Shown: positions 15,788 through 63,687 of the stretch, piece after piece
Numbering within the stretch: position 1 is the stretch's first letter
Layout: each line of letters begins with the position of its first letter
Assembly (NCBI GenBank): GCA_026396115.1
Contig: JAPLXL010000002.1
Span: 5,142-69,141 of the forward strand
Length of the DNA stretch: 64,000 nt
Source: Candidatus Nealsonbacteria bacterium
GTDB lineage: Bacteria > Patescibacteriota > Minisyncoccia > Minisyncoccales > RBG-13-42-11
Direction of reading: 5' to 3'
Notes under the pieces: generated by a model
The model's input: the letters and a program-made list of their open reading frames with translations, nothing else
Databases searched by the model: none
What the model was told of the DNA's origin: nothing
Made by a program: the position numbers and the translations under genes

Positions 15788-16580
15788 TAGATTGCAATAT
15801 TTTCCGTATTTTTAAAGCTTCTTTTTGGGGACGGCAAATGAAAATATCCCCGTTAAATTTCTGATAGTTTTCAGTAATTTTTTTAGCCGTTTCATAGTTA
15901 TTAGTTTCACAAAAAACCGTTGGTCCGGATCCAGAAAGTTTAGTTTCAAGTTTAAATTTTTTAAGATAATTTTCAATTTTTAAGATATCGGGACAAATTT
16001 CTTTGGCCAGGATTGAAAAATTTCTCCCTGTTTTATCATAAAACTTATACATCTTTTTGGTTTCTATTCTTTTGTGAGGTCGAAAAAGAACAAAAACTTT
16101 TGGCAATTTTTTTTTGATAGGGGTTATTTTTTCTCCAATTCCCTCTACTTGACAAGTGCCGCCATAAAAGAAAAAAGGAATGTCGGCGCCTACCATTAGG
16201 CCGATTTGTATTAATTTCTTTCTCCCTAAATTTAATTTATAAAGTAGATTTAAGGCAAGTAAGGTAGCAGCAGCATCAGCGCTGCCGCCGCCAAGGCCGG
16301 CTGAAATTGGAATTGTTTTTTGAAGATGAATTCGGCAAGGAAGTTTTCTGTTTAAAGTTTTTTCTAAGGTTTTTTTAGCTTTTAAAATAATATTCTCTGA
16401 TTTCGGGCAAATTATCGCTCCGGTAAACTCATTTTTCTTGTGTTTTTCAAAAAACAAAAAATCAGAAAGGTTAATTGATTGAAAGACGCTTTTAATTAGA
16501 TGATGTCCGTTAGTTCTTTTTCCTAAAATTTTCAAATCAAGATTTAATTTAGCGTTGGCTTGAATTAAGATGGCATCCAT
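15753..16580 (-). CDS. ispE: 4-diphosphocytidyl-2-C-methyl-D-erythritol kinase
   Basis: GHMP kinase motif PISAGLGGGSADAAA, with an N-terminal KLNLDLKI pattern. Confidence 0.85.
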   Translation of the reverse strand: MDAILIQANAKLNLDLKILGKRTNGHHLIKSVFQSINLSDFLFFEKHKKNEFTGAIICPKSENIILKAKKTLEKTLNRKLPCRIHLQKTIPISAGLGGGSADAAATLLALNLLYKLNLGRKKLIQIGLMVGADIPFFFYGGTCQVEGIGEKITPIKKKLPKVFVLFRPHKRIETKKMYKFYDKTGRNFSILAKEICPDILKIENYLKKFKLETKLSGSGPTVFCETNNYETAKKITENYQKFNGDIFICRPQKEALKIRKILQSNEYCYYFSCRR

Positions 16581-19220: not shown

Positions 19221-19223
19221 TGA

Positions 19224-19282
19224 GTCGAAGAGGACGAAGTCCTCTTCTTCACCTTCGCTTTCGCTGCGCGAAAGCTCGGTAT
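19224..19282. repeat. Family A type A2 variant filling the spacer upstream of polX
   Basis: GTCGAAGAGGACGAAGTCCTCTTCTTCACCTTCGCTTTCGCTGCGCGAAAGCTCGGTAT, followed directly by ATG. Confidence 0.9.
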
Positions 19283-29840: not shown

Positions 29841-29858
29841 TTTGCTAAGATGATTTAA

Positions 29859-30015
29859 GGCGAAGAGGACTTCGTCCGTCGAGTCAAAGACGAGACGAAA
29901 GAAGAAAAACTTTTCTTCGCACTCTTATTCACCTTCGCTTCCATAGTCGAAAGAGAATTTCATTCTCTTTCTCACCTTCGCTTCCTTCGGAAGCTCGGTA
30001 ATGGAAGCTCGGTAT
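29859..30015. repeat. Left inverted-repeat arm (family A2 with nested insertions)
   Basis: Positions 29860-29945 are the reverse complement of 31706-31791 (85/86 by hand alignment). A 54-nt extra family A module lies at 29946-29999. Confidence 0.9.
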
Positions 30016-31692: not shown

Positions 31693-31791
31693 CCGAGCTT
31701 CCATTTATGGAAGCGAAGGTGAAGAAGAGTGCGAAGAAAAGTTTTTCTTCTTTCGTCTCGTCTTTGACTCGACGGACGAAGTCCTCTTCGC
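31691..31791. repeat. Right inverted-repeat arm (family A2 with one nested insertion)
   Basis: See the left arm. It starts inside the stop codon of the bracketed gene. Confidence 0.9.
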
Positions 31792-31811
31792 TAAAGGTTA
31801 AAATAAAATCA

Positions 31812-34418: not shown

Positions 34419-34555
34419 TCAAAGAAGGCAAACCTTTTTTTCCATACTTCGTTTGCTCAATGAAATAAAAATTTCATTTCGACGTTCGATTGATGAAATA
34501 TAAATTGAGACGTAAGATGAGATTTATCTCATCGAACTTATAAATAAAAACTCGT

Positions 34556-47247: not shown

Positions 47248-47816
47248 CAGAATTTAATATGTTAATTGTTGGAACCGGCGGTCAGGGACAGATTACTCTT
47301 TTGCAAGTTTTGGCTGAAGCCGCCTTAATTGAAAATCTTGATTTCAAAAGTTCTGAACTGCACGGCTTATCTCAAAGAGGAGGTTCGGTTGAGGTTCATA
47401 TTAGATTTGGAAAACAAATTTACTCGCCAATGGTTTCAGCCGGAAAAGCTGATTTAATTTTAGGTTTAGAAATGCAAGAAAGTTTAATGGCGGCGAATTT
47501 TGCCGGCCTTAAAACAAATTTTTTGGTTAATAAATATATTGTTCCTATTCCTTTGCAAAAAAACTTATCCGAAAAAGAACTTTTAAACCAATTAAAAAGG
47601 ATTGGTAAAGATGTTTTTTTGGTGCCGGCAACCGAAATCTGTCAGAAAGAATTAGGAACTAACGTAGTTGCCGGAATTTATTTAATAAGCTTAGCCTCTT
47701 TCAAAAAACTAATTCCGATAAGACCAGATTCAATTCTTAAAGCAATGAAAAAAATAATTCCAGAAAAATATCTGGAACTAAATCTCAAAGCCCTTAACCT
47801 TGCACTTAATCAATGA
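47226..47816 (+). CDS. iorB: Indolepyruvate oxidoreductase beta subunit
   Basis: LIVGTGGQGQITL motif. The start could instead be the ATG at 47259. Confidence 0.75.
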   Translation: MHSNKKITEFNMLIVGTGGQGQITLLQVLAEAALIENLDFKSSELHGLSQRGGSVEVHIRFGKQIYSPMVSAGKADLILGLEMQESLMAANFAGLKTNFLVNKYIVPIPLQKNLSEKELLNQLKRIGKDVFLVPATEICQKELGTNVVAGIYLISLASFKKLIPIRPDSILKAMKKIIPEKYLELNLKALNLALNQ

Positions 47817-47868
47817 ATCTTCGATTCATTTCAATCTTCAATAAATTTTCAATTTATTTAGATAACCA

Positions 47869-49197
47869 ATGAATAACTATATTATTCAGGGAGCAAAAAA
47901 ATTAAAAGGAACTGTTGTTGTTAACTCGTCAAAGAATTCGGCATTGGCCATTCTGGCTGGTTCCCTTTTAAATGAAAAAAAGACCATAATAGCCAATCTG
48001 CCAAAAGTTGAAGAAGTTTATAGAATCATTGAAGTTTTAGAAAGTATTGGCGTTAAAACAGAGTGGAAAGGAGGTCATTGTATTGAAATAATTCCTCCCA
48101 AAAAATTAAATCTTGAGAGAATAAATAAAAAATCGGCTGCTCAAACGCGCAGTATTATTTTGTTTTTGGCCGGGCTTTTGCTCAAATTTAAAGATTTTGA
48201 TTTGCCAATGTCTGGGGGATGTCAACTTGGTCGAAGAACAATAATGCCCCATATTTATGCTTTGGAGAATTTTGGAATAAGAATAAAGGATTTTTGCGAT
48301 AAATTGAATATAAGTTATCAAAAACTTCATCCGGCTGAAATTGTAATGTATGAATCAGGAGATACGGCGACAGAAAATGTTATTCTTGCTGCTTCCTTAA
48401 TTCCGGGAAAAAGCGTTATAAAATTTGCCTCTTCTAATTATCAGGTTCAGGACCTCTGCTATTTTCTGAGCGATCTTGGAGTGAAAATTGAAGGAATTGG
48501 AACAACCACTTTGAGAATTTGGGGCAGAAGAAAATTATCCAAAAATATTAGGTATTATTTAACAGAAGATCCGATTGAGTCCATGCTTTTTTTGTCTATT
48601 GCTGCTGTTACAAAATCATCAATTGTTATAAAAAGATGTCCCATAGAATTTTTAGAGTTAGAACTTTTGAAGATGCAAAAAATGGGTTTTCAGTTTAAGA
48701 TATTAAAGAGATATAGGGCAGAAAACGGATATGCTAAGTTAGTTGATATTAAAACTTTCCCCTCTAATTTAACTGCTCCGGTTGAAAAACTTTACGGAAG
48801 ACCCTTTCCCGGGTTAAACATAGACAATCTTCCTTTTTTTGTTCCTATTGCCACCCAGGCAAAAGGAGAGACATTAATTCACGATTGGGTTTATGAAAAC
48901 CGCACTATTTATTATGCTGAGCTAAATCGACTTGGGGCAAAAATAAAACTTGCTGATCCTCATCGAGTTTTTATAACGGGACCATCAAGGTTAAAAGGAT
49001 CGGAAATTATTTGCCCTCCGGCACTGCGGCCTTCAGCCATTATTTTAGTAGCAATGTTGGCAGCAAAAGGAGAATCAGTTCTCAGAAATACTTATGCAAT
49101 TGAAAGAGGATATGAGAATTTAGTTGAAAGATTAGAAGAATTAGGAGCAGACATAAAAAAACAAACATCTGAAAACAACTATGTCAAAAAGACTTAA
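47869..49197 (+). CDS. murA: UDP-N-acetylglucosamine 1-carboxyvinyltransferase
   Basis: 442 aa with the active-site region SGGCQLGRRTI and an EPSP/MurA fold pattern. Confidence 0.9.
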   Translation: MNNYIIQGAKKLKGTVVVNSSKNSALAILAGSLLNEKKTIIANLPKVEEVYRIIEVLESIGVKTEWKGGHCIEIIPPKKLNLERINKKSAAQTRSIILFLAGLLLKFKDFDLPMSGGCQLGRRTIMPHIYALENFGIRIKDFCDKLNISYQKLHPAEIVMYESGDTATENVILAASLIPGKSVIKFASSNYQVQDLCYFLSDLGVKIEGIGTTTLRIWGRRKLSKNIRYYLTEDPIESMLFLSIAAVTKSSIVIKRCPIEFLELELLKMQKMGFQFKILKRYRAENGYAKLVDIKTFPSNLTAPVEKLYGRPFPGLNIDNLPFFVPIATQAKGETLIHDWVYENRTIYYAELNRLGAKIKLADPHRVFITGPSRLKGSEIICPPALRPSAIILVAMLAAKGESVLRNTYAIERGYENLVERLEELGADIKKQTSENNYVKKT

Positions 49198-53081: not shown

Positions 53082-53129
53082 CGCGGCTCTGCCGCGCCGA
53101 TGACAATTTCAAGTTTTTTTTGGCGGCAA
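53082..53129. repeat. Left copy of the ~49-bp direct repeat flanking GC-rich island 1
   Basis: CGCGGCTCTGCCGCGCCGATGACAATTTCAAGTTTTTTTTGGCGGCAA. About 44 of 49 positions match the copy at 53741-53789. Confidence 0.9.
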
Positions 53130-53173
53130 TTGAATTATGAATTTATTTCATTTAAAAATCAATAAAAGAGAAA

Positions 53174-53201
53174 GGGGTTGTGAGATTTCTCTCACAACCC
53201 C
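53174..53201 (-). terminator. Intrinsic terminator of the Cys-rich ORF
   Basis: Perfect 12-bp stem GGGGTTGTGAGA/TCTCACAACCCC, followed on the minus strand by TTTCTCTTTT. Confidence 0.8.
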
Positions 53202-53214
53202 CGTTGGAACGTGT

Positions 53215-53526
53215 CTATATGTCGTCGTAGGCAGACGAGTGTGTGAAGCGCCGACCGCAGCAGTAGCAGAGTGCAATGTAGTAGTTCGTGACGTGATCTT
53301 CTTGCCGTCCGCACTTCTTGCATCGCTGTGTCTGCACTTCCTTCATCTGCGCCATCGGCTTGCCGCAGCACCGAGTGAACCACCAGGTCTTCTTGCCGAA
53401 GATTCCTGGATTGGGCTCGAACCGCTTCTCACCGACGTTTTCCCACTCCGGTCCGTGGTCAAGGCACCTGCCGTGAACACACTGGCCGTGTGGATACTTC
53501 TGACCTGCAAGATTGCTATGTTCCAT
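53215..53526 (-). CDS. Cys/His-rich small protein (103 aa, 9 Cys), putative zinc-binding, in GC-rich island
   Basis: ATG is preceded by AAGGAGG at a 7-nt spacing, with its own promoter and terminator. Contains CKKCG and CYCCG motifs. No family recognised. Confidence 0.6.
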   Translation of the reverse strand: MEHSNLAGQKYPHGQCVHGRCLDHGPEWENVGEKRFEPNPGIFGKKTWWFTRCCGKPMAQMKEVQTQRCKKCGRQEDHVTNYYIALCYCCGRRFTHSSAYDDI

Positions 53527-53573
53527 AGCACATCCTCCTTTCTGGCCACCCGTTTTCTTAGGTGCCAATTAAT

Positions 53574-53601
53574 ATGATACATGAAATCAGTAAAAAGTCA
53601 A
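53574..53601 (-). promoter_or_regulatory. Sigma70-like promoter (TTGACT - 16 nt incl. TG - TATCAT) for the Cys-rich ORF
   Basis: Read on the minus strand: CTCTTGACTTTTTACTGATTTCATGTATCAT. Confidence 0.5.
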
Positions 53602-53740
53602 GAGCAACAAAAAATCACCATCTCTGGTGTTTCTTATCTCTTAAATCCTAGTATTTTATGATTAAAAATTTTTTTCCCCCAAATTCAAAATATGGTTCGT
53701 GCCGATATTTTTCTCCAGGTTCTTTTGCGGTTTTTATCGG

Positions 53741-53789
53741 CGCGGCTCCACCGCGCCGATGACAATTTCAAGTTTTTCTTTGGCGGCAA
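53741..53789. repeat. Right copy of the direct repeat flanking GC-rich island 1
   Basis: CGCGGCTCCACCGCGCCGATGACAATTTCAAGTTTTTCTTTGGCGGCAA. Contains the 10-bp-stem hairpin ATCGGCGCGG/CCGCGCCGAT. Confidence 0.9.
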
Positions 53790-53817
53790 ATTTTTGTTTT
53801 GTAATATGCAAGCAAAA

Positions 53818-54288
53818 TTAATTAACAAAAAAATCTTTTCTTCTGGCTAAATAAATTATTACAATAAGCCCTATGATCCAACCAAATACCAATCCAGATA
53901 TTAAGCTAGCATTGATTAACTCGTGGGTCATCAAAGAAGCCATATCTGGAGGAAGAAATTTCTGATAATAACTGCCATACATGGTTTTATTTGCCAGAAA
54001 TGAAACTAAATTGATCAATAATAGCGCCATCCAAAAAATATACCAACCAATTGCTAATTTTCTTGCCCATCTAAATCTCTTTAGAATGCCATAGAAAATT
54101 ATTCCCAATATTCCAGCAATAACTAACATTACTACAGTAGCTCTGGCTCCACTAACTATAATTGGCCCCAATTGATACGAGGGAATTTTAAATGCGTTAA
54201 GCAACAAAGATACAGCTCCCCATCCGAAAAGGACTAGAATTAATATCATGCCAATAGGCATCTTCTGTTCAATTTGTTCGTTTTCCAT
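53818..54288 (-). CDS. Hypothetical membrane protein (about 4 TM helices)
   Basis: Hydrophobic segments throughout. No recognisable motif. Confidence 0.5.
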   Translation of the reverse strand: MENEQIEQKMPIGMILILVLFGWGAVSLLLNAFKIPSYQLGPIIVSGARATVVMLVIAGILGIIFYGILKRFRWARKLAIGWYIFWMALLLINLVSFLANKTMYGSYYQKFLPPDMASLMTHELINASLISGLVFGWIIGLIVIIYLARRKDFFVN

Positions 54289-54331
54289 AATGTTATAAAA
54301 AATTAATAATTAAATAATTCGATCTTTGTAT

Positions 54332-54757
54332 TTATATTTTATTTGTTAAATATGGACCCGATATTAAACTTATCGAGATTATAATTAAAATTAATACAAC
54401 GAACATAATTAATCCAGTTAAGAGAAGAACTAAAAACGACTTCAATATTGATTCTCCATAGAATCTATGAATAACGTAAATTCCGGCGATAAAAGAAACG
54501 GTCAATGATAAAATTGTAAATATAGAAGATAATTTTTGGATTTGATCTAAAAATAATATAGATAAAATAGAATTAATGCCGATGAGTATGCCAAGAATAA
54601 TTAAACTACAATAAAATGCGGTTTTGAAATCATTCTTTTGAAATTTGAAAAGACGAGAAAACAAGCGTAACACCAAAGAGGCGACCAAGGGAGCAATTGC
54701 TGAACCCAATATACTCAGAAACATTATTAATATAATTAGTGGTGTGCTATTTAACAT
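54332..54757 (-). CDS. Hypothetical membrane protein (about 4 TM helices)
   Basis: Hydrophobic segments throughout. No recognisable motif. Confidence 0.5.
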   Translation of the reverse strand: MLNSTPLIILIMFLSILGSAIAPLVASLVLRLFSRLFKFQKNDFKTAFYCSLIILGILIGINSILSILFLDQIQKLSSIFTILSLTVSFIAGIYVIHRFYGESILKSFLVLLLTGLIMFVVLILIIISISLISGPYLTNKI

Positions 54758-54936
54758 TCTAAATTTATTATATTATAACAGTTTTATGAAAAAATTTTCT
54801 CTTCCTCAAATAAAATCGCCAACTGATTTTTTCGTCCAAAATTTCCTACAATTTGGTCGTCGAGCCCTGCACCAGAACAAGTTCGGTGCGGGATAAACTC
54901 CGCGAGGCGAATCGAAACCGCTTGCAAATTCTTTAC

Positions 54937-55048: not shown

Positions 55049-57166
55049 TTATTTTTTTTCAAGTTTATAGCTACATTCCTTGTTTGAACATTTAACCTGT
55101 TCTCTTTTTGTTTGAACTAAAAGCGAACCGCATTTTTGGCATTTTTTTCCGGTGGGTTTGTCCCACAAAGCAAAGTCGCATTTTGGAAACTGGTTGCAGC
55201 CGTAGAAGATTTTTCTTTTTTTGGTTCTTTTTTCAACAATTTCTCCCTTTTTGCATTTGGGGCATTTTATTCCCAAAATATTCTTTTCTAAAGATTCCGT
55301 ATATCTGCATTTTGGAAACTTGGAGCAGGCATAAAATTTGCCGTATTTTCCGAGGCGAATTAACAACGGGGCTCCGCATTTTGGACAAGTTTTTTTTGTC
55401 GGTTTTTCGGTAATGTCTTTTTTGGAAACCTCTTCATATTTTTGTTTTAGATTTTTTTCAAACGGATTGTAAAAATCTTTTATCACCTTGATCCATTCTT
55501 TTTGATTATTGGCAATTTTATCCAGATTTTCTTCCATTTTGGCAGTAAATCCAACGTCAACGATTTCCGGAAAATGAGCCACTAAAAGATCATTAACCAC
55601 CAGACCGATCTCGGTTGGCCGGAATCTTCTTTGTTCATCCTTCTCAATATAGTTTTTTTCTTGAATGTTTGATAAAGTCGGAGCATAGGTTGAGGGTCTG
55701 CCAATTCCGTTTTCTTCCAAGACCTTAATTAAAGTTGCTTCATTGTATCTTGGTGGAGGTTGAGTAAAATGCTGCGAGGGAAGGAGTTTAATTAGTTCCA
55801 AAATCTCTTCCTTCTCCAAAACTGGGAGCTCTTTCTCCTCAAATTTCAAAGGATAAACTTTCAGGAATCCGTCAAACTTGAGAATTTGCCCTGTGGTTCT
55901 AAATGTATATATTTTTGATTTTAGGGCTTCGATATCAACGACAGTCGAGTCGAAGCTCGCCTGTGCCATTTGGCAGGCAATAAATCTTCGCCAGATTAAA
56001 TCATAGAGTTTTATCTGTTGGTTATCTAATTTGAGCTTATCGGGCGTTTTATCAGGATAAGCGGGCCTTATTGCTTCGTGAGCCTCTTGGGCACCCTTGC
56101 TTTTTGTTTTGTATTTTCTTAAAAATCCTGGCCAATAATTTTCACCATAATTTTTAACAATAAATTTTTTCGCAGCAAATAAAGATAAATTGGAGAGATT
56201 TAGAGAATCGGTCCGGTGATACGTGATTTTTCCAGTTTCGTAAAGTTGTTGGGCAATTCGCATTGTTAGTTTTGCCGGAAATTTAAATTTTTGCCAAGCG
56301 GTTTGCTGTAGAGTACTGGTAGTAAATGGCGGTAGAGGATTTCTCTTTATTTCTTTTTTTTCAACATTAATTACTTTATATTCTGCTCCTTCCAAATCTT
56401 TTAAAATTCCATCCGCCTCTTCCTTTGTTTTAATTCCCAATTTCGGAATAGCTTCCCCGTCTCTTTTAACCAAAACCGCTTCGAATTCGTTATTTTTGAT
56501 TTTTGATTTTTGAAAGGCGAAGAGGACTTCGTCCTCTTCTTCACATTCGCTTCCATGAATGGAAGCTCGGTTTTTGAGGAGCGTAGCGACGATACTCCAG
56601 TACTCTTGAGCGATAAAATTTTCAATTTCTCTTTCCCGTTCTACGACAAATCGTACTGCTACCGACTGAACTCGTCCGGCCGATAACCCCCTGGCAACTT
56701 TTTTCCATAAAAATGGAGAAAGCTTGTAACCGACAATTCTATCTAAAATTCTTCTGGCCTGCTGGGCGTTGACTAAATTAATATCAATTTTTCTCGGATT
56801 TTTTAAGGACTCTTTAATGGCTGATTTGGTAATTTCATGGAAAAAAATTCGTTGATATTTTTTATCTTTATTAAGGTTTAGGAGAAAGATTAAGTGGTAG
56901 GCGATTGCTTCTCCCTCCCGGTCTTGGTCGGTTGCCAAAATTACCAATTCTGCTTTTTGAGACTCTTTTTTTAAAGATTCCACATTTTTTTTAGCCCGGG
57001 GGATGATGATGTACTTTGGTTTGAAATTATTTTTCAAATCAATTCCAAATTCATCTTCCGGCAGGTCCCGCATGTGGCCGTAAGAAGACAAAACTTGGTA
57101 TTTTGGGCCTAAAAATTTTGATATTGTTTTAGATTTAGCAGGACTTTCAACGATAACTAATAGCAT
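55049..57166 (-). CDS. topA: DNA topoisomerase I
   Basis: 705 aa with a TOPRIM N-terminus (LVIVESPAKSKTI), catalytic region ITYHRTDS and C-terminal zinc ribbons (CPKCG..., CPKCKKG..., CQKCG...). In-frame repeat at 56516-56571. Confidence 0.95.
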   Translation of the reverse strand: MLLVIVESPAKSKTISKFLGPKYQVLSSYGHMRDLPEDEFGIDLKNNFKPKYIIIPRAKKNVESLKKESQKAELVILATDQDREGEAIAYHLIFLLNLNKDKKYQRIFFHEITKSAIKESLKNPRKIDINLVNAQQARRILDRIVGYKLSPFLWKKVARGLSAGRVQSVAVRFVVEREREIENFIAQEYWSIVATLLKNRASIHGSECEEEDEVLFAFQKSKIKNNEFEAVLVKRDGEAIPKLGIKTKEEADGILKDLEGAEYKVINVEKKEIKRNPLPPFTTSTLQQTAWQKFKFPAKLTMRIAQQLYETGKITYHRTDSLNLSNLSLFAAKKFIVKNYGENYWPGFLRKYKTKSKGAQEAHEAIRPAYPDKTPDKLKLDNQQIKLYDLIWRRFIACQMAQASFDSTVVDIEALKSKIYTFRTTGQILKFDGFLKVYPLKFEEKELPVLEKEEILELIKLLPSQHFTQPPPRYNEATLIKVLEENGIGRPSTYAPTLSNIQEKNYIEKDEQRRFRPTEIGLVVNDLLVAHFPEIVDVGFTAKMEENLDKIANNQKEWIKVIKDFYNPFEKNLKQKYEEVSKKDITEKPTKKTCPKCGAPLLIRLGKYGKFYACSKFPKCRYTESLEKNILGIKCPKCKKGEIVEKRTKKRKIFYGCNQFPKCDFALWDKPTGKKCQKCGSLLVQTKREQVKCSNKECSYKLEKK
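56516..56571. repeat. Family A type A2 element, in-frame in topA
   Basis: GGCGAAGAGGACTTCGTCCTCTTCTTCACATTCGCTTCCATGAATGGAAGCTCGGT. Preceded by (ATTTTTG)x3 at 56491-56513. Confidence 0.92.
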
Positions 57167-58019
57167 ATACGTTATTTCCTAAGTTTCTTACTTTACATTT
57201 TATTTCTAAGATAGCAAGAGTGCTGGCTATGGTTGAGGCCGGCAATTTTGTCTTTTCAATAATTTTATCAATATATAATGCTTCTTCTTTTAAAATTTTC
57301 AAAATCAAATTTTCTTCTTCTGACCTTTCATTTTCAACGAGAACAGTTCTCGTTGATGGTTGTGGTAAATTCAATTCTTTTAAAATATCGTTGGTATGTT
57401 CAACTAATTTTGCCCCTTGCTTAATTAATTTATGAGGTCCTTTGGAATTTGAAGAATGAATTGGGCCGGGAACAGCGAAAACTTTTCTTCTTTGTTTTCT
57501 TGCCCATTCGGCAGTGATTAAAGCTCCGGACTTTTGTTTTGCTTCGACAACTAAGACTCCTAAACTCAATCCGGAAATAATTCTATTTCTTTGGGGAAAA
57601 GAGAATTGGGAGCCGGGGGTTCCCGGAGGATATTCAGAAATTAAGCAGCCACCGGTTTCTAAGATTTTTTGAGCTAATTTTAAATTTGACTGAGGATAAA
57701 TGGTTTTTTCATCTAAACCCGTGCCCAAGACCGCAATCGTTCTTTTGTTTCTTTCAACTGCTGCTGTATGAGCAAAAGTATCAATTCCCGGTGCTAATCC
57801 CGAAACAATAATTAATCCAGTTTCGGCTAAATCTCCGGCCATTTCCAAAGCCACCTGTTTTCCATAAGGAGAGTATCTTCTTGTTCCAACAATTGCAAAA
57901 CAATTTTCCTCTTTTTTTAATTCGCCTCTTACATAAAGAACCTTTGGCGGATTTTTGATTTCTTTCAGAAGTTTTGGATAATTTTTATCGTTGAGAGCAA
58001 TAGTTTTTATTTCTTCCAT
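57147..58019 (-). CDS. dprA: DNA-processing protein DprA
   Basis: AIVGTRRYSPYGK...SGLAPGIDTFAH Rossmann core, in the conserved dprA-topA order. Confidence 0.9.
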   Translation of the reverse strand: MEEIKTIALNDKNYPKLLKEIKNPPKVLYVRGELKKEENCFAIVGTRRYSPYGKQVALEMAGDLAETGLIIVSGLAPGIDTFAHTAAVERNKRTIAVLGTGLDEKTIYPQSNLKLAQKILETGGCLISEYPPGTPGSQFSFPQRNRIISGLSLGVLVVEAKQKSGALITAEWARKQRRKVFAVPGPIHSSNSKGPHKLIKQGAKLVEHTNDILKELNLPQPSTRTVLVENERSEEENLILKILKEEALYIDKIIEKTKLPASTIASTLAILEIKCKVRNLGNNVYAISYR

Positions 58020-58021
58020 AT

Positions 58022-58140
58022 TTTTTTATCTTATCATTTACTGAGCTTTTATGTAATAAAGGTCAAAGAGATAAATCTCTTTTTCATCTTCGTTTTCGCT
58101 GTGCGAAAACTTGATAAGTGAATAAGAATGAATATTCTTC
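58022..58140. repeat. ~120-bp module upstream of dprA (copy 1)
   Basis: About 114/120 identical (hand alignment) to 61141-61260. Confidence 0.9.
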
Positions 58141-60100
58141 AACCAGTTCGTAATCTTTCCACGGCTTCAGATAGCATTTGACAGTAGAGATTTAACCCCA
58201 CCCTATTTATATTCCCTGATTGCTCTTTTCCCAAAACATTGCCGGCTCCACGGATTTCCAAATCTTTCAAAGCAATTTTATAGCCAGAGCCTAATTCTTC
58301 GGTCTCCTTGAGTGCGGTTAATCTTTCTTTAACCAAAGGAGCGAGCCGTTGGGGATACAAAAAATAAGCAAAGGCTTGAATATGGCTTCTTCCAATTCGA
58401 CCCCGGATTTGGTAGGCCTGAGCTAAACCTAATTTAGTTGAATCGGCGACAACTAAAGTATTAACATTGGGCAGGTCTAATCCATTTTCAATAATTGTTG
58501 TCGCTACCAAAACATCAATTTTTTCTTTTTGGAAATCTTCCATCACTTTTACCAATTCTTTTTCTTTTAATCTTCCGTGAGCGATACCGAACTTCGCCTG
58601 GGGAACCAGTTTTTCTAAGAAATTTTTTACTGTTTCAATTGTTTCTACTCTATTATGCAAATGATATACCTGGCCACCTCGAGAAATTTCATTTTCAATC
58701 GCTTCTTTAATAACTTTTTCATTAAATTGTGAAATAAAAGTTTTTACCGATAATCTTCCCTTCGGCGGAGTTTGAATCAAGCTGATATTTTTTAGAGAGG
58801 ATAAAGCCATATACAAAGTTCTGGGAATGGGAGTGGCAGAAAGTGATAAAACATCCAAAGAAGTTCTTATCTTTTTTAATCTTTCTTTTTGTTTAACTCC
58901 AAATCTTTGTTCGTCATCAATAACCAATAGCCCCAAATTTTTAAATTCAACATCGTTTGATAAAATTCGGTGAGTGCCTACCGCTATGTCAACTTTCCCA
59001 TTTTTTAAATCATTAATTATTTCTCTCTGGTATTTTTTAGATTGCAACCTCGATAACATCGCTATTTTAACTGGTAAATTTTTTAATCGTCCCTTAAAAT
59101 TTTGAAAATGTTGATTAGCCAAAATAGTGGTTGGGCAAATCATCGCCGCTTGATAGCCGGACTTAACCGCCCTTATTATTGTTCTAAGAGCTATTTCAGT
59201 TTTGCCAAAACCAACATCGCCGCAAACAATTCTGTCCATCGGCTCTTCTTTTTCTAAATCTTTTTTGATATCTTCAAGTGTTTCAATTTGGTCAGAGGTT
59301 TCTTCGTATTGGAAAGAAGAAGCTAATTGAAAATCAATTTCATCTTCCGGTAAATATGGAGGACGGGAAGAAATAGTTCTTTTAGCATAAATTTCCAATA
59401 ATTCTTTGGCCGTTTTTTCCGTATCGGTTTTTATTTTTCTTTTTGTTTTCTGCCAAATTAGAGAACCCAATCTTGAGATTTTGGGTTCAATAAATCCAAC
59501 ATATCTTGAAAGTTTTCTTTCCAAGCCAGTTGGTACATATAGTTTGTCGCTGGCAGCGTATTCAAGTTGATAATATTGCTGATTGTCAATTGTTAATCGT
59601 TGATTGTAAATTCCGATGCCGTGGTCAAGATGGACTAAATAGTTTCCGGGCTTCAGTCCTCTTAAATCGGAAAAAAATTTTTGAGATTTTAATTTCTTTT
59701 TTAAAAATTCTTTTGCGGTCTTTTCATTTTTAACTTCGATTGGCAACTTTTCAATGTTTTCAATTCTATTTCCCAAAAACTCAAAACGAACAGCCTGATT
59801 GGAATTTATCGGAAAAACATCAAGAATTCCTCCTCTTTGAGAGAACTCTCCGGGATCTTGAACCCCAAGCATTTTTTCATATCCCATTTCATCTAATTTT
59901 CTTAAAATTTGAGACAAATTAACTTTTTGGTTCTTGGTAAAATATAGAGTATTATCTTCAAAGAAAGATTGGGTCTTTCTTGTTTCCAAGATTTTATTAA
60001 GATTTTCTTCAAACCAAAAAAAGCCCTTTTCTAAAAAGTAGGGGGTGATAGAGCAAATCAGAACTTTATCAATCTGGCTTGACAAATTCATTTTATTCAA
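58139..60100 (-). CDS. mfd: Transcription-repair coupling factor, short form lacking the N-terminal UvrB-homology module
   Basis: CarD/TRCF RNAP-interaction motif (NYLVHLDHGIGIY) and SF2 helicase motifs (GDVGFGKTE, DDEQRFG). The track start is TTG at 60100. The ATG at 60091, preceded by TATAAT plus 8 nt, is an alternative. Confidence 0.8.
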   Translation of the reverse strand: MNKMNLSSQIDKVLICSITPYFLEKGFFWFEENLNKILETRKTQSFFEDNTLYFTKNQKVNLSQILRKLDEMGYEKMLGVQDPGEFSQRGGILDVFPINSNQAVRFEFLGNRIENIEKLPIEVKNEKTAKEFLKKKLKSQKFFSDLRGLKPGNYLVHLDHGIGIYNQRLTIDNQQYYQLEYAASDKLYVPTGLERKLSRYVGFIEPKISRLGSLIWQKTKRKIKTDTEKTAKELLEIYAKRTISSRPPYLPEDEIDFQLASSFQYEETSDQIETLEDIKKDLEKEEPMDRIVCGDVGFGKTEIALRTIIRAVKSGYQAAMICPTTILANQHFQNFKGRLKNLPVKIAMLSRLQSKKYQREIINDLKNGKVDIAVGTHRILSNDVEFKNLGLLVIDDEQRFGVKQKERLKKIRTSLDVLSLSATPIPRTLYMALSSLKNISLIQTPPKGRLSVKTFISQFNEKVIKEAIENEISRGGQVYHLHNRVETIETVKNFLEKLVPQAKFGIAHGRLKEKELVKVMEDFQKEKIDVLVATTIIENGLDLPNVNTLVVADSTKLGLAQAYQIRGRIGRSHIQAFAYFLYPQRLAPLVKERLTALKETEELGSGYKIALKDLEIRGAGNVLGKEQSGNINRVGLNLYCQMLSEAVERLRTG

Positions 60101-60107
60101 TTATAAT
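60079..60107 (+). promoter_or_regulatory. Perfect consensus sigma70 promoter TTGACA - 17 nt - TATAAT (plus strand), overlapping the mfd start
   Basis: Hexamers and a 17-nt spacer counted directly. Points into GC-rich island 2. Confidence 0.65.
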
Positions 60108-60162
60108 ATATTCTATAATAAGAAGAATAGGAACTTTGTCAAATTAAAATAATTTTGCTTTC

Positions 60163-60315
60163 CGGTCTATCTGCGAGTTGGCTTAACCGAGCATATAACT
60201 TTGTTATATGCTCGGGGATGGATTTCTAAGTGATCACTCCTTTAAACTTAGTGTGCCTTAGCTTTGTAGCGAAGTACTTATGTATTTTTACTACGAAGGC
60301 TCGCAGGTAGACCGG
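60163..60315 (+). ncRNA. Structured 5' leader / candidate cis-regulatory RNA of unknown class
   Basis: A 16-bp long-range stem pairs CCGGTCTATCTGCGAG (60163-60178) with CTCGCAGGTAGACCGG (60300-60315), with one G-U pair. It encloses a perfect 13-bp hairpin CCGAGCATATAAC/GTTATATGCTCGG and a CTAAGT/ACTTAG hairpin. Confidence 0.4.
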
Positions 60316-60361
60316 AGGGTAAAAGTAAGTTAAAAAATGAATAGGGGAGGAGGTGAGACTA

Positions 60362-60595
60362 ATGGAGAGACCGATGATGGACGAGATCGAGATCCAGAAA
60401 AAAATACTTGTTGCTCTGCAAAAAAGCGGCAAGCCCATGACCAGCACCGAGCTGGAAAAGGCACTTGGCCTGGAGTGGACAGAGTTTTCCCGCCCTTTTG
60501 GAAAAATGATTCAAACTGTTTTTAATACCGGGGGTCGAGTGTTGACAATTCCGGATCCTACCGGACGGGGACAACTATTTGTTCTATCTTCCTAA
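60362..60595 (+). CDS. Small winged-helix-like protein (77 aa) in GC-rich island 2
   Basis: ATG is preceded by GGAGGAGGTGA (strong SD). The segment KKILVALQKSGKPMTSTELEKALGL resembles a wHTH recognition unit. Terminator follows. Confidence 0.55.
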   Translation: MERPMMDEIEIQKKILVALQKSGKPMTSTELEKALGLEWTEFSRPFGKMIQTVFNTGGRVLTIPDPTGRGQLFVLSS

Positions 60596-60602
60596 TTGAA
60601 GA

Positions 60603-60631
60603 GTCGGGGCCATCTGTGGTTTCGACTTTTT
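60603..60631 (+). terminator. Intrinsic terminator of island 2
   Basis: GTCGGGG...TTTCGAC stem (3 G-U pairs) followed by TTTTT. Confidence 0.45.
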
Positions 60632-60633
60632 AT

Positions 60634-61137
60634 TTAGGCGTTGAATTTCGCCATTGCTTTTTCTATTCCCTCCTTTAAAGAAAATTCAATCGCCTCAACT
60701 GTTTCTTGAATAACTTCTTTGACAATTCCTTCTTCTTTATTAAATTTTTGAAGAACAAATCTTTCTGGACTTTTGGGCTTGCCAAATTTTGGCTGAATAC
60801 CGATTCTAAACCTAATAAAATTTTTTGATTTTAATTCATTCACTATTGATTGAACTCCTTTATGGCCGCCTGCTCCCCGATTTTTATTGATTCGGATTTT
60901 GCCCAGAGGAATGTCGATGTCGTCATGAACGACAATCAAATTGTCAGGTTTTAGTTTATGGTTTTTTAGTAAATTTCTTACTGCTTGACCGGAAAGATTC
61001 ATGAAACTTTTAGGTTTAGCCAAAACAACTCCTTTCAATGTTAAAGGAGCAAGCTTGTCGATAACTCTAAAACCAACATTATGGCGAGTAAATTTATATT
61101 TTGGCCCGGGGTTGCCGAGACCGACAATTAAAACCAT
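60634..61137 (-). CDS. pth: Peptidyl-tRNA hydrolase
   Basis: LIVGLGNPGPKYKFTRHNVGF is a typical Pth N-terminus. Confidence 0.95.
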   Translation of the reverse strand: MVLIVGLGNPGPKYKFTRHNVGFRVIDKLAPLTLKGVVLAKPKSFMNLSGQAVRNLLKNHKLKPDNLIVVHDDIDIPLGKIRINKNRGAGGHKGVQSIVNELKSKNFIRFRIGIQPKFGKPKSPERFVLQKFNKEEGIVKEVIQETVEAIEFSLKEGIEKAMAKFNA

Positions 61138-61140
61138 AGA

Positions 61141-61260
61141 TTTTTTTATTATATCATTTACTGAGCTTTTATGTAATAAAGTTCAAAGAGATAAATCTCT
61201 TTTTCATCTTCGTTTTCGCTGTGCGAAAACTTGATAAATGAAGAAGAATGAATATTCTTC
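61141..61260. repeat. ~120-bp module upstream of pth (copy 2)
   Basis: Same orientation and same position relative to the downstream ATG as copy 1. Confidence 0.9.
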
Positions 61261-61312
61261 GCCTACCCGAGCCGCAGCGAAGGGGGAAGAAGAGGATTTA
61301 TCCTCTTCGCCT
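61261..61312. repeat. Family A type A1 element (intergenic reference copy)
   Basis: GCCTACCCGAGCCGCAGCGAAGGGGGAAGAAGAGGATTTATCCTCTTCGCCTAC. Confidence 0.92.
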
Positions 61313-61351
61313 ACTTGCAAAACAAGAAAAACTAAGTATAATTAAAATAGT

Positions 61352-61897
61352 ATGAAATCGTTTTTAGTATTTATCTGGGAAATCGCAAAAATAGTAATCA
61401 TTGCCCTATTGATTGTCGTTCCCATTCGCTATTTTGTTTTTCAGCCATTTTTTGTAAAGGGTCAGTCAATGGAGCCAAATTTTGGCAATGGCGATTATCT
61501 GATTGTTGACGAAATTACTTACAGATTCAGACCGCCGCAACGGGGAGAAGTAATTGTTTTTAAATATCCCAATGATCCCTCCCAGCGTTATATTAAAAGG
61601 ATTATTGGTCTTCCCGGAGAAACAATAGAAATAGAAGAGGGAAAAGTGATAATTTATAATGAAGAGGGAGGGAGAATGTTAGAAGAGTCAGATTATCTTT
61701 CATCCTCTGTTTCCACTTCGGGAAGTCTTCGCATAACCTTAGACGGAGATGAATATTTTGTTTTGGGAGACAACAGAGTTGCTTCATCAGATTCAAGGCG
61801 ATGGGGTTCGTTGCCTCAGGAAAATATTATTGGTCGGGTTTTAATTAGAGTTTGGCCGTTTGTTACCTTTGCCAAAATTGAAATCCCCAATTACTAA
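61352..61897 (+). CDS. lepB: Signal peptidase I
   Basis: N-terminal TM helix, GQSMEPNF (catalytic Ser), YIKRIIGLPGE (Lys box) and GDNRVASSDSR. Confidence 0.92.
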   Translation: MKSFLVFIWEIAKIVIIALLIVVPIRYFVFQPFFVKGQSMEPNFGNGDYLIVDEITYRFRPPQRGEVIVFKYPNDPSQRYIKRIIGLPGETIEIEEGKVIIYNEEGGRMLEESDYLSSSVSTSGSLRITLDGDEYFVLGDNRVASSDSRRWGSLPQENIIGRVLIRVWPFVTFAKIEIPNY

Positions 61898-61900
61898 AAA

Positions 61901-62003
61901 GGCGAAGAGGGCTTCACCCTCTTCTTAATCTACCGAAGCTTCAGCTGAGGTGGAGAAGAATGAATGTTCTTCGATTCGCTTTCGCTGCGCGAAAGCTCGA
62001 TAT
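61901..62003. repeat. Family A composite (A3) filling the lepB/hisS spacer
   Basis: GGCGAAGAGGGCTTCACCCTCTTC...CTACCGAAGCTTCAGCTGAGGTG...TTCGCTTTCGCTGCGCGAAAGCTCGATAT, followed directly by ATG. Confidence 0.9.
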
Positions 62004-63284
62004 ATGAAAAAACCAAAATTTCAAAGACCGACCGGAATGCACGATATTTTACCGGAAGATCAGGGATATTTTCAAAAAATTTATAATGTTTGTGAAACGG
62101 TGGCTAATTTTTACGGATTTAAAAAAATAGACACTCCAATTTTGGAAGATACAGCTCTTTATGAAAAAGGGACCGGGCTGGCAACCGACATTGTTCAAAA
62201 GCAAATGTTTACTCTTCGAACAAAAGGAAGAAATTATTTAACCTTAAGACCAGAATTTACTCCGGGGATAATAAGAGCTTATTTGGAACACGGAATGCAA
62301 ACTCTGCCTCAGCCCATAAAATTATATTCATCGGGACCGGCATTTAGATATGAACATCCTCAGGCAGGAAGATATCGCCAGTTTCATCAATTTAATCTTG
62401 AGGTTATTGGAGATGGTAATTCGGTTATTGATGCCCAAGTCATTCAGATTTTTTATAATATTTTAACTGAAATTAAATTAAAAAAATTAATTGTAGAGAT
62501 AAACAGCATTGGCGACAATCAGTGTCGGCCATATTATAAAAAACTTTTACTAAGCTATCTTAAATCAAGAGATTTGTCTTTATGTGTTGATTGTCGTCGC
62601 AGATTAAGAGAGAACCCTTTAAGAGTTTTGGATTGTAAAGAGGAAAAATGTCAAAGAATAGTAAGTCAAGCGCCGCAAATGATCGACCATCTTTGCCAAG
62701 AATGTCATGATCATTTTAAGGGAGTTTTAGAATTTCTTGATGAGATTGAATTACCTTATCGTTTAAATCCTTATCTGGTGAGAGGGCTGGATTATTATAC
62801 TAAAACAGTTTTTGAAATATTTGAAGACACAGAAGAAGGAAGAAAAATGGGGAGCCTATCAGGCGGAGGAAGATACGATGCTTTAGTAAAATTGTTAGGC
62901 GGAGAAGATACAAAAGCTATTGGGGGAGCAATGGGTATAGAAAGAGTGATTGCCACAATTAAATCTAAAAAAATAAAAACCCAAAAGCCCTCCAATCCTC
63001 CAATTTTCTTGGCCCAACTTGGTATAATGGCAAAAAGAAAAAGTTTAAAACTTCTAGAGGATTTTAGAAAAGTTAAAATTCAGGTGGCAGAATCTTTTGG
63101 AAGAGATTCATTAAAAGCTCAGCTAAAAATAGCAGATAGGCTGGGAGTAAAATATACGCTTCTTTTGGGCCAAAAAGAGGTCTTAGAAGAGACAATTATA
63201 ATCAGAGATATGAAAATAGGCAGGCAAGAAACAGTGAAATTGGAAAAAGTAGTGAGAGAAATGCAGAAACGACTTAAAAAATGA
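62004..63284 (+). CDS. hisS: Histidine--tRNA ligase
   Basis: RPTGMHDILP N-terminus with class II motifs. Start at ATG 62004, since upstream track codons are repeat DNA. Confidence 0.93.
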   Translation: MKKPKFQRPTGMHDILPEDQGYFQKIYNVCETVANFYGFKKIDTPILEDTALYEKGTGLATDIVQKQMFTLRTKGRNYLTLRPEFTPGIIRAYLEHGMQTLPQPIKLYSSGPAFRYEHPQAGRYRQFHQFNLEVIGDGNSVIDAQVIQIFYNILTEIKLKKLIVEINSIGDNQCRPYYKKLLLSYLKSRDLSLCVDCRRRLRENPLRVLDCKEEKCQRIVSQAPQMIDHLCQECHDHFKGVLEFLDEIELPYRLNPYLVRGLDYYTKTVFEIFEDTEEGRKMGSLSGGGRYDALVKLLGGEDTKAIGGAMGIERVIATIKSKKIKTQKPSNPPIFLAQLGIMAKRKSLKLLEDFRKVKIQVAESFGRDSLKAQLKIADRLGVKYTLLLGQKEVLEETIIIRDMKIGRQETVKLEKVVREMQKRLKK

Positions 63285-63308: not shown

Positions 63309-63653
63309 ATGAAAAATTGTATTTTTTGTAAAATCGTAAATAAAGAAATACCAGCTGAGTTCGTTTATGAAGATGAAGAAATTTTAGGTTTTAAAAATAT
63401 TCATCCCGAAGCCCCTATTCACTTTCTTTTAATTCCTAAAAGGCATATTGTTTGGAAAGACGAATTTGATGAAGAAGATTTAACTCTTTTAGGTCGGCTT
63501 CTCTCAACTGCTAAAAAAATATCAAAAGAGAAAAAAGTTTTTGAGGCCTGCAAACTGATTTTTAATGTTGGAAAAACTGGACACATTACTCATATCCATG
63601 TTCATCTTTTGGGCGGTTGGGGAGAAGAAAAAATTCCAAAGTATAATGTTTAA
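63309..63653 (+). CDS. HIT family (histidine triad) protein
   Basis: CIFCKI N-terminus and the HIHVHLLGG triad. Confidence 0.9.
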   Translation: MKNCIFCKIVNKEIPAEFVYEDEEILGFKNIHPEAPIHFLLIPKRHIVWKDEFDEEDLTLLGRLLSTAKKISKEKKVFEACKLIFNVGKTGHITHIHVHLLGGWGEEKIPKYNV

Positions 63654-63687
63654 TGAATTTTTAATTCATTTCAATGTTTAATTTCAT

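Follow-up and report, generated by a model that had tools for sequence, protein, structure and literature searches.

A modular two-hairpin repeat family between and within the housekeeping genes of a Candidatus Nealsonbacteria bacterium

The stretch of DNA analysed here (the window) comprises 64,000 nucleotides of a Candidatus Nealsonbacteria bacterium (contig JAPLXL010000002.1 of assembly GCA_026396115.1), and the subject of this report is a family of short two-hairpin repeats noticed at its positions 61141-62003. The window has a G+C content of ~35% and is densely packed with housekeeping genes, including uvrB, a murein ligase gene, archease-rtcB, rtcA, the isoprenoid genes ispDEGH, greA, polX, several tRNA synthetase genes, topA, dprA, mfd, pth, lepB, and hisS, together with one tmRNA and two tRNAs. 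The closest named relatives are Parcubacteria metagenome-assembled genomes (MAGs), with UvrB 76% identical to that of CG1_02_39_15 and other matches in Ca. Nealsonbacteria; the host genome is probably smaller than 1 Mb, the nearest complete relative having 0.64 Mb. A Shine-Dalgarno (SD)-like motif precedes just 2 of the 47 gene starts of the whole window, and many first genes (e.g., lepB, pth, and dprA) have a TATAAT 8-12 nt upstream of their ATG, which suggests leaderless or SD-independent initiation. Three metagenome contigs (L084, L078, and L094) are collinear with the window over 49-64 kb at ~88-95% nucleotide identity and serve as close relatives in what follows.

The hairpins lie in two spacers, between pth (minus strand) and lepB (plus strand) at 61138-61351 and between lepB and hisS at 61898-62003. 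They are not separate objects but modules of one repeat family. A unit of this family, as repeat analysis and inspection give it, is composed of NGGC, hairpin 1 (H1) GAAGAGGAC-TTC-GTCCTCTTC, the linker TTCACCTTC, hairpin 2 (H2) GCTTCCAT-AA-ATGGAAGC, and TCGGT, and composites have further hairpins, H3 (GAAGAAT-GAAT-ATTCTTC) and Z (CTACCGAAGCTTCAGCTGAGGTGG), or contain nested insertions. The features of the two spacers are as follows.

61160 to 61181, minus strand: H2-type module, CTTTAT-TAC-ATAAAAG followed by CTCAGT in the minus reading, overlapping the predicted -35 of the pth promoter; in L084, not in L078.
61181 to 61235, plus strand: complete 55-nt unit, GTTC, H1 AAAGAGAT-AA-ATCTCTTT (61185-61202), linker TTCATCTTC, H2 GTTTTCGC-TGT-GCGAAAAC (61212-61230), and TTGAT, then AAATGA; the site is without it in L084 and L078, and a near-identical copy lies at 58061-58115 as part of a 121-nt repeat of 96% identity.
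61243 to 61260, plus strand: H3 module GAAGAAT-GAAT-ATTCTTC, in L084 and not in L078, found also at 61955-61972 and 58123-58140; with the two preceding features it makes up the composite 61160-61260.
61265 to 61312, minus strand: 48-nt short-form unit, AGGC, H1 GAAGAGGAT-AA-ATCCTCTTC (61289-61308), TTCCCCCTTC, GCTGCGGC, and TCGGGT, with CTTCGCCTAC at both ends, directly upstream of the predicted lepB promoter (61315-61342); not in L084 or L078.
61900 to 62001, plus strand: 102-nt composite, AGGC, H1 (61904-61924), TTAAT, nested hairpin Z (61930-61953), H3 (61955-61972), GATTC, H2 (61978-61996), and TCGAT, filling the lepB-hisS spacer and followed by AT and the hisS ATG at 62004.

The stems are 9 bp long in H1 and 6-8 bp in H2, and each hairpin by itself spans 18-21 nt. 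H1 starts 4 nt from the left end and H2 stops 5 nt from the right end, and the ends themselves, NGGC and TCGGT, do not form inverted repeats. H1 and H2 are of different sequence and always stand in the direct order H1-linker-H2; variants of H2 include GCTTTCGC-TGC-GCGAAAGC and GCTTCC-TTCG-GGAAGC. A hidden Markov model (HMM) of the unit, which undercounts divergent subfamilies, collected 97 full-length distinct copies overall from the window and related genomes; 16 of its matches, on sequence only, fall in the window, where we count ~20 copies. Unit lengths range from 45 to 58 nt with modes at 57 nt (32 copies) and 54 nt (21 copies), 60 of the 97 being divisible by three, and there is a 48-nt short form with a vestigial H2, GCTGCGGC. 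The linker TTCACCTTC is found in 54 of 89 copies and the H1 loop reads TTC in 40 and TAAA in 15 of them, while ends and linker keep one order (NGGC, TTCACCTTC, TCGGT) across dozens of assemblies. An alternative pairing of the 5' GCGAAG with the CTTCGC of the linker was considered and rejected, as the outer H1 stem variants GACGAG and GATGAG leave the linker unchanged.

The sequence-only reading that had drawn attention to the locus listed individual hairpins and proposed that their pairing is kept while the stem sequence changes. All of the listed hairpins are present, with coordinates that differ by 0-8 nt: AAAGAGAT-AA-ATCTCTTT at 61185-61202 (given there as 61187-61203), GTTTTCGC-TGT-GCGAAAAC at 61212-61230 and 58092-58110, GAAGAGGAT-TT-ATCCTCTTC at 61289-61308 (61281-61305), GAAGAGGGC-TTC-ACCCTCTTC at 61904-61924, where the innermost pair is a C/A mismatch, and GCTTTCGC-TGC-GCGAAAGC at 61978-61996 and 19257-19275. 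The conservation of loops and linkers that it described is borne out by the counts above, and the composites into which it saw the modules combined are real arrangements in the window. Hairpins with an ATTTAT/ATAAAT centre, which it called unrelated-looking, are not unrelated, TAAA/TTTA being the loop of one subfamily. What it overlooked is that the copies at 61141-62003 are recent insertions missing from close relatives, and that five housekeeping genes contain copies in frame.

Comparison with the close relatives gives the clearest view of these insertions. All breaks of collinearity within 55-64 kb coincide with a repeat. The pth-lepB spacer of L078 reads only ..TATATCATT|TACTTGCAAAAC... 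and has no unit, that of L084 adds the H2-type module and H3, and the window further adds the full unit 61181-61235 as well as the short unit 61265-61312 bounded by the repeated CTTCGCCTAC. The lepB-hisS junction is empty in L078 (TAA-TTTT-ATG) and L094 (TAA-AT-ATG); L084 has a simple 61-nt unit there, and in the window this unit contains Z and H3, nested within the linker. More distant relatives show the same architecture at this junction with other stems (AAAGAGGAT/ATCCTCTTT and GTTTTTTAT/ATAAAAAAC, or GAAGAGAT/ATCTCTTC and GTTTTTAAT/ATTAAAAAC), and many others are empty. A 57-nt unit in topA is missing from all three close relatives. Since relatives of ~91% identity are without the copies at 61141-62003, these copies are insertions.

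Exact boundaries were taken from three pairs of filled and empty sites, none of which has a target duplication: a 57-nt gain in L079 relative to L094 (aaa|GGGCGAAG..GCTCGGT|agc), a 57-nt gain in L104 relative to L106 at the same ybeY nucleotide as in L079, and a 54-nt gain in L110 relative to L118. The ybeY codon concerned (KKF.S.|F.KEL) forms a hot spot, which is occupied in L079/L081, L083, and L104 and empty in L084, L087, L094, L095, L102, L106, and others; L109 has a different, unrelated insert there, and L078 carries a unit elsewhere in ybeY. According to the HisRS identity matrix the filled genomes form three separate lineages with empty relatives between them, which implies at least three precise gains or losses at one nucleotide position. 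Units and extra modules have been added singly, in tandem, or nested, at stop-start junctions, beside promoters, and in frame within genes. We are highly confident that the units constitute a structured repeat family of modular build that is mobile, or has at least been gained and lost repeatedly.

Compared with dinucleotide shuffles, the window has an excess of perfect hairpins of at least 8 bp (52 against 19.4 ± 4.2), and more so of those with at least three G/C per arm (29 against 4.4 ± 2.2); GAAGAGG..CCTCTTC occurs 6 times and in none of 100 shuffles. Both strands of 61180-61315 and of 61895-62006 fold with z ~ -4. For a first test of covariation, 41 copies were chosen by the linker alone, without regard to pairing. 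In these, 96.7% of the cells in H1 and H2 are paired, compared with 45-58% for slid partners, and double-sided changes occur in 7 of 17 pairs (54 cells). The covariation score of 0.215 against 0.107 was reached by 0 of 500 shuffles; the two most conservative measures, pairs with double changes (26/500) and pair types (259/500), are not significant alone. As the copies are related by descent, further tests were made on re-dealt arms and non-redundant stems, using 89-96 copies from dozens of related genomes. For 89 units collected with the HMM, with arms paired from the outside inwards and a null in which the 3' arms were re-dealt among units, the Watson-Crick share is 97.0% in H1 against 81.8 ± 0.9% and 93.3% in H2 against 66.0 ± 1.5%. 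Counting each distinct perfect stem once, there are 13 for H1 (GATGAAG, GACGAGG, and AAAGAGA among them) where 1.3 are expected and 7 was the maximum in 2000 permutations, and 15 for H2 (including GTCCCG, GCCTTT, ACCTCG, and GTTTTT) where 1.5 are expected and 6 was the maximum. The pairing is thus kept through changing stem sequence in both hairpins.

Whether this pairing is maintained in DNA or in RNA had been left undecided by the sequence-only reading, and the data favour DNA. Compensation is strictly Watson-Crick. Were the helix a functional RNA, G·U should be much better tolerated than A·C. Among the stems, 1365 Watson-Crick pairs are accompanied by 21 G·T and 27 A·C mismatches, and once these are oriented to the transcript, with directions of transcription inferred from the open reading frames (ORFs), 14 are of G·U type and 12 of A·C type. 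Such parity points to a constraint or process that is strand-symmetric, that is, one acting on DNA. Copies inside ORFs occur in both orientations (17 antisense and 5 sense), and the cluster 61185-61311 is flanked by the predicted promoters of pth (61177-61148) and lepB (61315-61342), which diverge, and is upstream of both. We consider it probable that pairing is maintained at the DNA rather than the RNA level, which is an indication and not proof because the mismatch counts are small.

The sequence adjoining the units is also informative. The TCGGT end is followed by NNN-TGA(A), with T at +4 in 69, G at +5 in 74, and A at +6 in 93 of the 97 copies, so that the TGA context lies 3 nt from the unit end. 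AATGA is already present in the empty pth site of L078, and the TGA motif therefore represents target context outside the element. It is found as well where no start codon exists, namely at the -10 region of pth and in topA, and in sense copies within ORFs it would be a stop codon. A gene starts at the H2 side in sense in 30 units, 19 of them with the exact TCGGT-NN-ATG offset, and at the H1 side in 9; since many genes start with ATGA.., the target context alone accounts for sense units that abut start codons. A fixed target-site duplication was looked for and rejected, as the lengths of flanking repeats vary from 0 to 17 nt.

The explanation that we hold to be somewhat more likely than not as a whole is a non-autonomous element resembling both the repetitive extragenic palindromes and their mosaic clusters (REP/BIME) and the Rickettsia palindromic elements (RPE), in which folded single-stranded DNA is what is recognised. 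The fold of the single strand and the linker motifs would be the features maintained. The folded unit may serve as substrate of a trans-acting enzyme that copies or excises it precisely, in a REP/RAYT- or IS200/IS605-like manner; this is the weakest step, and a dedicated hairpin-recognising enzyme seems to us possible though doubtful. Insertion would prefer sites followed by NNN-TGA(A), which would leave units in sense 2 nt upstream of start codons, and host selection would retain only the frame-preserving copies, in keeping with modal lengths that are multiples of three and with most unit frames being stop-free. Recombination between shared motifs could then shuffle the modules into composites. 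A more specific and decidedly speculative version is that the unit is the substrate of a novel single-stranded DNA mobilisation system of the Candidate Phyla Radiation (CPR): two hairpins on 19 (or 18 or 16) codons that are seamlessly inserted and excised beside TGA sites, that are harmless in coding sequence by virtue of a length divisible by three and several frames (nearly) stop-free in both orientations, that regenerate an ATGA start context between genes, and that are mobilised either by an enzyme not related to RAYT or IS200 TnpA or by a factor of the host's own replication or repair.

Several observations weigh against this explanation. The sequence-only reading had looked to a RAYT/IS200-type transposase, and none emerged: a Pfam scan gave no transposase domain in any window ORF, the Y1 type (RAYT or IS200) included, and phmmer found no RAYT or IS200 TnpA among 4693 ORFs from 1.38 Mb of window and all fetched loci (~10-20 kb per genome, in part unrelated DNA from chance pattern matches), a negative that is weak because the queries, E. 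coli RayT and a hand-entered IS200 TnpA sequence, were single sequences. The lone phmmer match was weak and came from an unrelated Pseudobdellovibrionaceae contig. No gene is recurrently flanked by units in the window and fetched loci, the neighbours being just housekeeping genes. Footprints are heterogeneous, with flanking direct repeats of 0, 3 (ATG, GTA), 7, 10, and 17 nt: ATG flanks the L092 insertion (as judged from the empty L089 site), GTA the pth insertion, TTTTTGA the topA insertion within a pre-existing heptamer run, the 10-nt family motif CTTCGCCTAC the unit 61265-61312, and a perfect 17-mer the copy in L140. Flanking repeats of at least 7 nt accompany 14 of 97 copies where 4.6 are expected. 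Heterogeneity of this kind is unlike the chemistry of a single transposase, and recombination or slippage fits it at least as well. The comparison of G·U with A·C rests on small counts, the orientation bias could equally reflect a role in RNA or translation, and mutation that perfects quasi-palindromes could yield compensation by Watson-Crick pairs only, with no selection involved.

The last point leads to the strongest rival, to which we give a minor but real chance: spread without any enzyme, by recombination, slippage, or template switching between short motifs, the stems being perfected by intrastrand template switching of quasi-palindromes and structure not being under selection. Correction of quasi-palindromes by intrastrand template switching is a known mutational mechanism, and it would account for compensation that is Watson-Crick only and strand-symmetric, just as recombination would account for direct repeats of 0-17 nt, for the bounding of 61265-61312 by a motif that is itself a family part, and for nested and tandem composites; that no transposase was found in window or fetched loci is also as this account would have it. 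It is harder to reconcile with exact 57-nt gains that lack junction microhomology and recur at the same nucleotide in three lineages, or with an external context as conserved as the A at +6. Single-stranded linkers are kept across genomes with only ~70% HisRS identity, and short palindromes free of selection would not be expected to persist over the long term.

Somewhat less likely still is that the units are RNA punctuation cassettes, in which H1, placed behind stop codons, serves to terminate transcripts or to stabilise their 3' ends, H2 with TCGGTNNATG forms a translation-start cassette in a genome without SD sequences, and the covariation reflects RNA structure. Typical units do begin directly behind a stop codon and leave 2 nt to the next start codon, in sense (the 30 against 9 noted above), some H1 copies are followed by T-runs (13094-13124; 61924-61904), one H2 variant overlaps a predicted promoter, and SD motifs are as rare as the 2 in 47 genes imply; Di Nocera et al. 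2013 (PMC3733652) argue that many REPs act as RNA elements. Yet G·U shows no excess over A·C on the inferred transcript, 17 of the 22 copies within ORFs are antisense to the host gene, and the cluster 61185-61311 lies upstream of both flanking promoters. The unit is dispensable, for close relatives express these genes with spacers of 2-4 nt and no unit. A scan for intrinsic terminators gave 3 sites in 57900-62100 against 4.0 expected, hence no excess; just one family hairpin qualifies, on the strand opposite to lepB, and most H1 copies are followed by TTCACC. Rfam matches in the whole window are confined to the tmRNA and the two tRNAs, with nothing meaningful at E<=1 in 61100-62050. The phasing to start codons can be a by-product of target choice, NNN-TGA being present also where no gene starts.

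Operator-type sites for a dimeric protein on duplex DNA would explain short perfect palindromes near promoters and gene ends, but we regard them as very improbable, because complementarity and not base identity is conserved (the perfect stems come in at least 13 and 15 versions, contrary to what a sequence-specific operator would show) and because copies lie inside ORFs. Independent, unrelated palindromes, the outcome that would have undone the proposal of the sequence-only reading and for which shuffles yield only AT-rich background palindromes, can be dismissed as next to impossible in view of the permutation and slid controls and of NGGC, TTCACCTTC, and TCGGT flanks shared in one order across dozens of assemblies.

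Returning to the repeat family itself, the other copies in the window are listed below.

45 to 92, minus strand: 48-nt short-form unit inside the frame of holA (DNA polymerase III delta), antisense to the gene.
492 to 610, minus strand: composite (H1, Z, H3-like hairpin, degenerate H2) downstream of holA.
1612 to 1657, minus strand: short-form unit in frame in uvrB, in sense, encoding SEEDKSSSSPFATAREG, with its hairpin at 1635-1654.
4450 to 4542, plus strand: two short-form units in tandem (45 + 48 nt), in frame within the archease gene, in a region that does not align to solved archease structures.
13094 to 13124, plus strand: H1-only module followed by a T-run, between convergent genes.
14234 to 14290, minus strand: canonical 57-nt unit between ispH and ispG, with its end 2 nt before the ispG start codon.
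19223 to 19280, plus strand: canonical 58-nt unit between the stop codon of an MFS gene and the start of polX (ATG 19283), with hairpins GAAGAGGAC-GAA-GTCCTCTTC (19227-19247) and GCTTTCGC-TGC-GCGAAAGC (19257-19275).
27967 to 28014, plus strand: 48-nt short-form unit in frame in ileS, in sense, encoding GEEDKSSSSPFAADR, an insertion relative to solved IleRS structures.
29856 to 30012, plus strand: composite of a unit with H1 split by a nested insertion, a second unit, and a duplicated H2 end, stopping at the start codon 30016.
31686 to 31795, minus strand: inverted copy of the nested composite, an 86-nt arm being 99% complementary to 29860-29945.
34516 to 34533, no strand assigned: GATGAGAT-TT-ATCTCATC hairpin followed by GAAC, missed by the family HMM; possibly a diverged H1/promoter module, of uncertain membership.
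56515 to 56571, plus strand: canonical 57-nt unit in frame in topA, antisense to the gene, with H1 at 56519-56539 and GCTTCCAT-GA-ATGGAAGC at 56549-56566, beside a (TTTTTGA)3 run at 56493-56513.
58041 to 58144, plus strand: 104-nt composite upstream of dprA (H2-type module, full unit, H3), a paralogue of 61161-61260 through the 121-nt repeat of 96% identity; missing from L084, L078 carrying a different composite there.

Five genes of the window (holA, uvrB, archease with two, ileS, and topA) thus contain copies in frame, and in archease, TopA, and IleRS the units coincide exactly with segments unaligned to solved structures (for TopA, that of E. coli). The window UvrB has the 17-residue insert SEEDKSSSSPFATAREG, which its orthologues in L017 and L067 lack, and UvrB of L067 has two other family inserts at places where the window has none. 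The short form encodes a common peptide, GEEDKSSSSPFAA.., in UvrB, archease (twice), and IleRS. Read as sequence, the canonical unit is free of stops in two frames, one on each strand; a third stays open as far as the flanking TGA, and the H2 variant with the TTCG loop opens a fourth. Peptides of 15-19 residues are in this way added to TopA, IleRS, UvrB, the DNA polymerase III delta subunit, and archease, and they inflate the apparent divergence of orthologous proteins. Mechanically predicted ORFs start inside units at 31707, 19217, 61950, 30001, and 14247, for example with ATG GAA GCG AAG GTG.. in the H2 loop and arm, and the true starts of three genes are further downstream (polX 19283, hisS 62004, surface protein 30016). 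Units with ATG, GTG, and TTG codons and open frames mislead gene callers, and N-termini in such genomes are likely mis-called.

The arms 29860-29945 and 31706-31791 of an 86-nt inverted repeat, 99% complementary, bracket a 563-residue gene (30016-31692), and each arm consists of a family unit with H1 interrupted by a nested insertion of 43 nt. Arms so nearly identical suggest a very recent duplication or a composite mobile cassette. As a transposase candidate the gene was rejected, since it encodes a membrane-anchored surface-type protein with a weak DUF7619 match only.

A scan of 185,579 species-representative genomes with the linker and its neighbouring bases only, CTCTTCTTCACNTTCGCTT, yielded 76 loci, of which ~45 are genuine units, all in Parcubacteria/CPR MAGs (Ca. 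Nealsonbacteria and others), and the rest chance matches in coding sequence; the complete genome CP179888.1 (639,534 bp) has nine of the loci. A metagenome scan with the window HisRS gave 80 orthologous loci of 95-64% identity, and the density of units per 10 kb, as counted with the HMM and hence too low for divergent subfamilies, declines with HisRS identity from 2.5 in the window to 1.8 (>=90%), 1.0 (80-89%), 0.9 (75-79%), 0.5 (70-74%), and 0 (<70%). In viral contigs the linker pattern gave only chance coding matches, and blastn against plasmids and phages gave no match at all, on which grounds carriage by phage or plasmid was rejected. In the library of papers that was searched, none connects CPR, Parcubacteria, or Nealsonbacteria to elements of the REP, MITE, or palindromic kind. 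The family appears to be specific to a clade of Parcubacteria (CPR/Patescibacteria), from which nothing of the sort appears to have been described before.

We also noticed other repeats in the same region. A second hairpin repeat family, AATGAATnnnnnATTCATTTCAAT, occurs at 47812-47870 and 63652-63682 of the window, at 8640-8735 of L078, and at 11677-11778 of L094; it is polymorphic among close relatives and bounded by repeated AATGTTTAA(T). The in-frame (TTTTTGA)3 heptamer run of topA (56493-56513) is shared by L084 and missing from L078 and L094, and leuS contains similar A/T-rich runs of 5-7-nt repeats (39857-39993); such runs are a second kind of in-frame insertion in housekeeping genes. 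Relatives of the window contain classical MITEs (miniature inverted-repeat transposable elements) whose terminal inverted repeats read CCCCGT..ACGGGG and whose target duplications are short (TGAA, or, where a start codon is the target, (T)ATG); they are located at L105 1323-1452, L106 11298-11427, and L113 15200-15283 and upstream of hisS in L122, and they look unlike the units. One 84-nt MITE insertion distinguishes L113 from L112, and as the flanks are 100% identical it must be very recent.

Two further observations concern the gene content. An RNA repair set is present in this reduced genome, consisting of the archease-RtcB pair (4172-6162) and the RNA 3'-phosphate cyclase RtcA (16565-17596), with the archease gene interrupted by two repeat units. 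A G+C-rich islet at ~53190-53570 has a minus-strand Cys-rich ORF of 117 residues (53215-53568) with no Pfam match; in front of this ORF, unlike elsewhere in the window, stands a ribosome-binding site of AGGAGG type. The islet is flanked by direct repeats of 48 nt (53082-53129 and 53741-53788), 53121-54812 is not collinear with the close relative L084, and the islet at 53082-53788 has the look of a small insertion of foreign origin.

About 2.5 copies per 10 kb are unexpected in CPR/Patescibacteria, whose genomes are among the smallest and most streamlined, and the only parallel is RPE in Rickettsia. The family points to a precise insertion and excision activity. Its linkers are constant, its stems come in dozens of variants, and sites filled in one genome are empty in others of ~91% identity; it offers an unusually clean natural data set for hairpin covariation in DNA as opposed to RNA, and its polymorphic sites are usable as strain markers.

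The family belongs to the small structured interspersed repeats of bacteria, which are of a known kind; the novelty lies in a two-hairpin, codon-multiple unit in a CPR lineage. Integron attC sites are likewise recognised as folded single-stranded DNA with little sequence conservation, stand between cassettes in an orientation set by the genes, and have sizes from 57 nt; they differ in forming a single long and imperfect hairpin, which has extrahelical bases and R/L core boxes and depends on IntI, none of which is found in the units. BOX of Streptococcus pneumoniae is a modular boxA-B-C repeat with variable module number, and together with Correia/NEMIS of Neisseria it resembles the units in being a small modular repeat, copies of which can carry promoters or affect the expression of neighbours. 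The units share no sequence similarity with either; Correia has terminal inverted repeats and a TA duplication, and neither is typically in frame in genes. Classical MITEs of the DDE type are set apart by terminal inverted repeats and target duplications of fixed length, which the units do not have.

RPE, reportedly described by Ogata et al. in 2000, come closer. As in RPE, palindromic units of a reduced genome interrupt housekeeping genes in frame and leave them intact, add a family-specific peptide at loop positions (here GEEDKSSSSPFAA..), occur between genes too, and have a mobilising agent that is not known in either case. By description, and not by direct comparison of sequences, they differ in that RPE are 100-150 bp long and belong to Rickettsia, whereas the units have 45-58 nt, two discrete hairpins, modular composites, and an external TGA context, and belong to Parcubacteria. 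RPE are also mentioned in a review of MITEs (PMC10969869).

Miniature elements of the IS200/IS605 family (PATE-type, mobilised by the Y1 HUH TnpA), as the family is outlined in PMC6006769, similarly have a hairpin near each end and no terminal inverted repeats. Gain or loss in the clean cases (L079, L104, L110) looks equally seamless and free of duplication, other cases having 3-17 nt flanking repeats; a short conserved sequence, NNN-TGA(A), is found at one end, and the pairing is strand-symmetric in DNA as for a single-stranded substrate. In the units, by contrast, the hairpins are mutually dissimilar, the conserved flank is 3 nt off the end, and several copies have flanking direct repeats.

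The likeness to REP/BIME and their RAYT transposases in Proteobacteria, which the sequence-only reading had proposed, holds for structure and distribution and fails for two hallmarks. The unpaired GTAG/CGTC end tag that PMC3733652 gives for REPs is missing, the unit starting with NGGC|GAAGAG and GTAG occurring just at some tandem junctions (~5 of 41 copies); nor is there the inverted doublet of a REPIN, as two differing hairpins stand in direct order. No gene matching E. coli RayT or IS200 TnpA was found in the window or in the 1.38 Mb of window and fetched loci, and modal length in multiples of three, frequent in-frame copies, and a CPR host are peculiar to the units. In that article REPs are placed sometimes inside genes, notably replication and repair genes (PMC3733652), and the present copies are intragenic as well. 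The definition of a REP as an imperfect palindrome of 20-40 nt in many extragenic copies suits hairpins of 18-21 nt with ~20 copies in the window and 97 units in related genomes. What the units share with REP/BIME is a small, structured, interspersed hairpin repeat in high copy number at gene ends, with maintained stem pairing, mosaic clusters joined by conserved linkers as in BIMEs, ends that are not terminal inverted repeats, and a lineage-restricted patchiness between strains.

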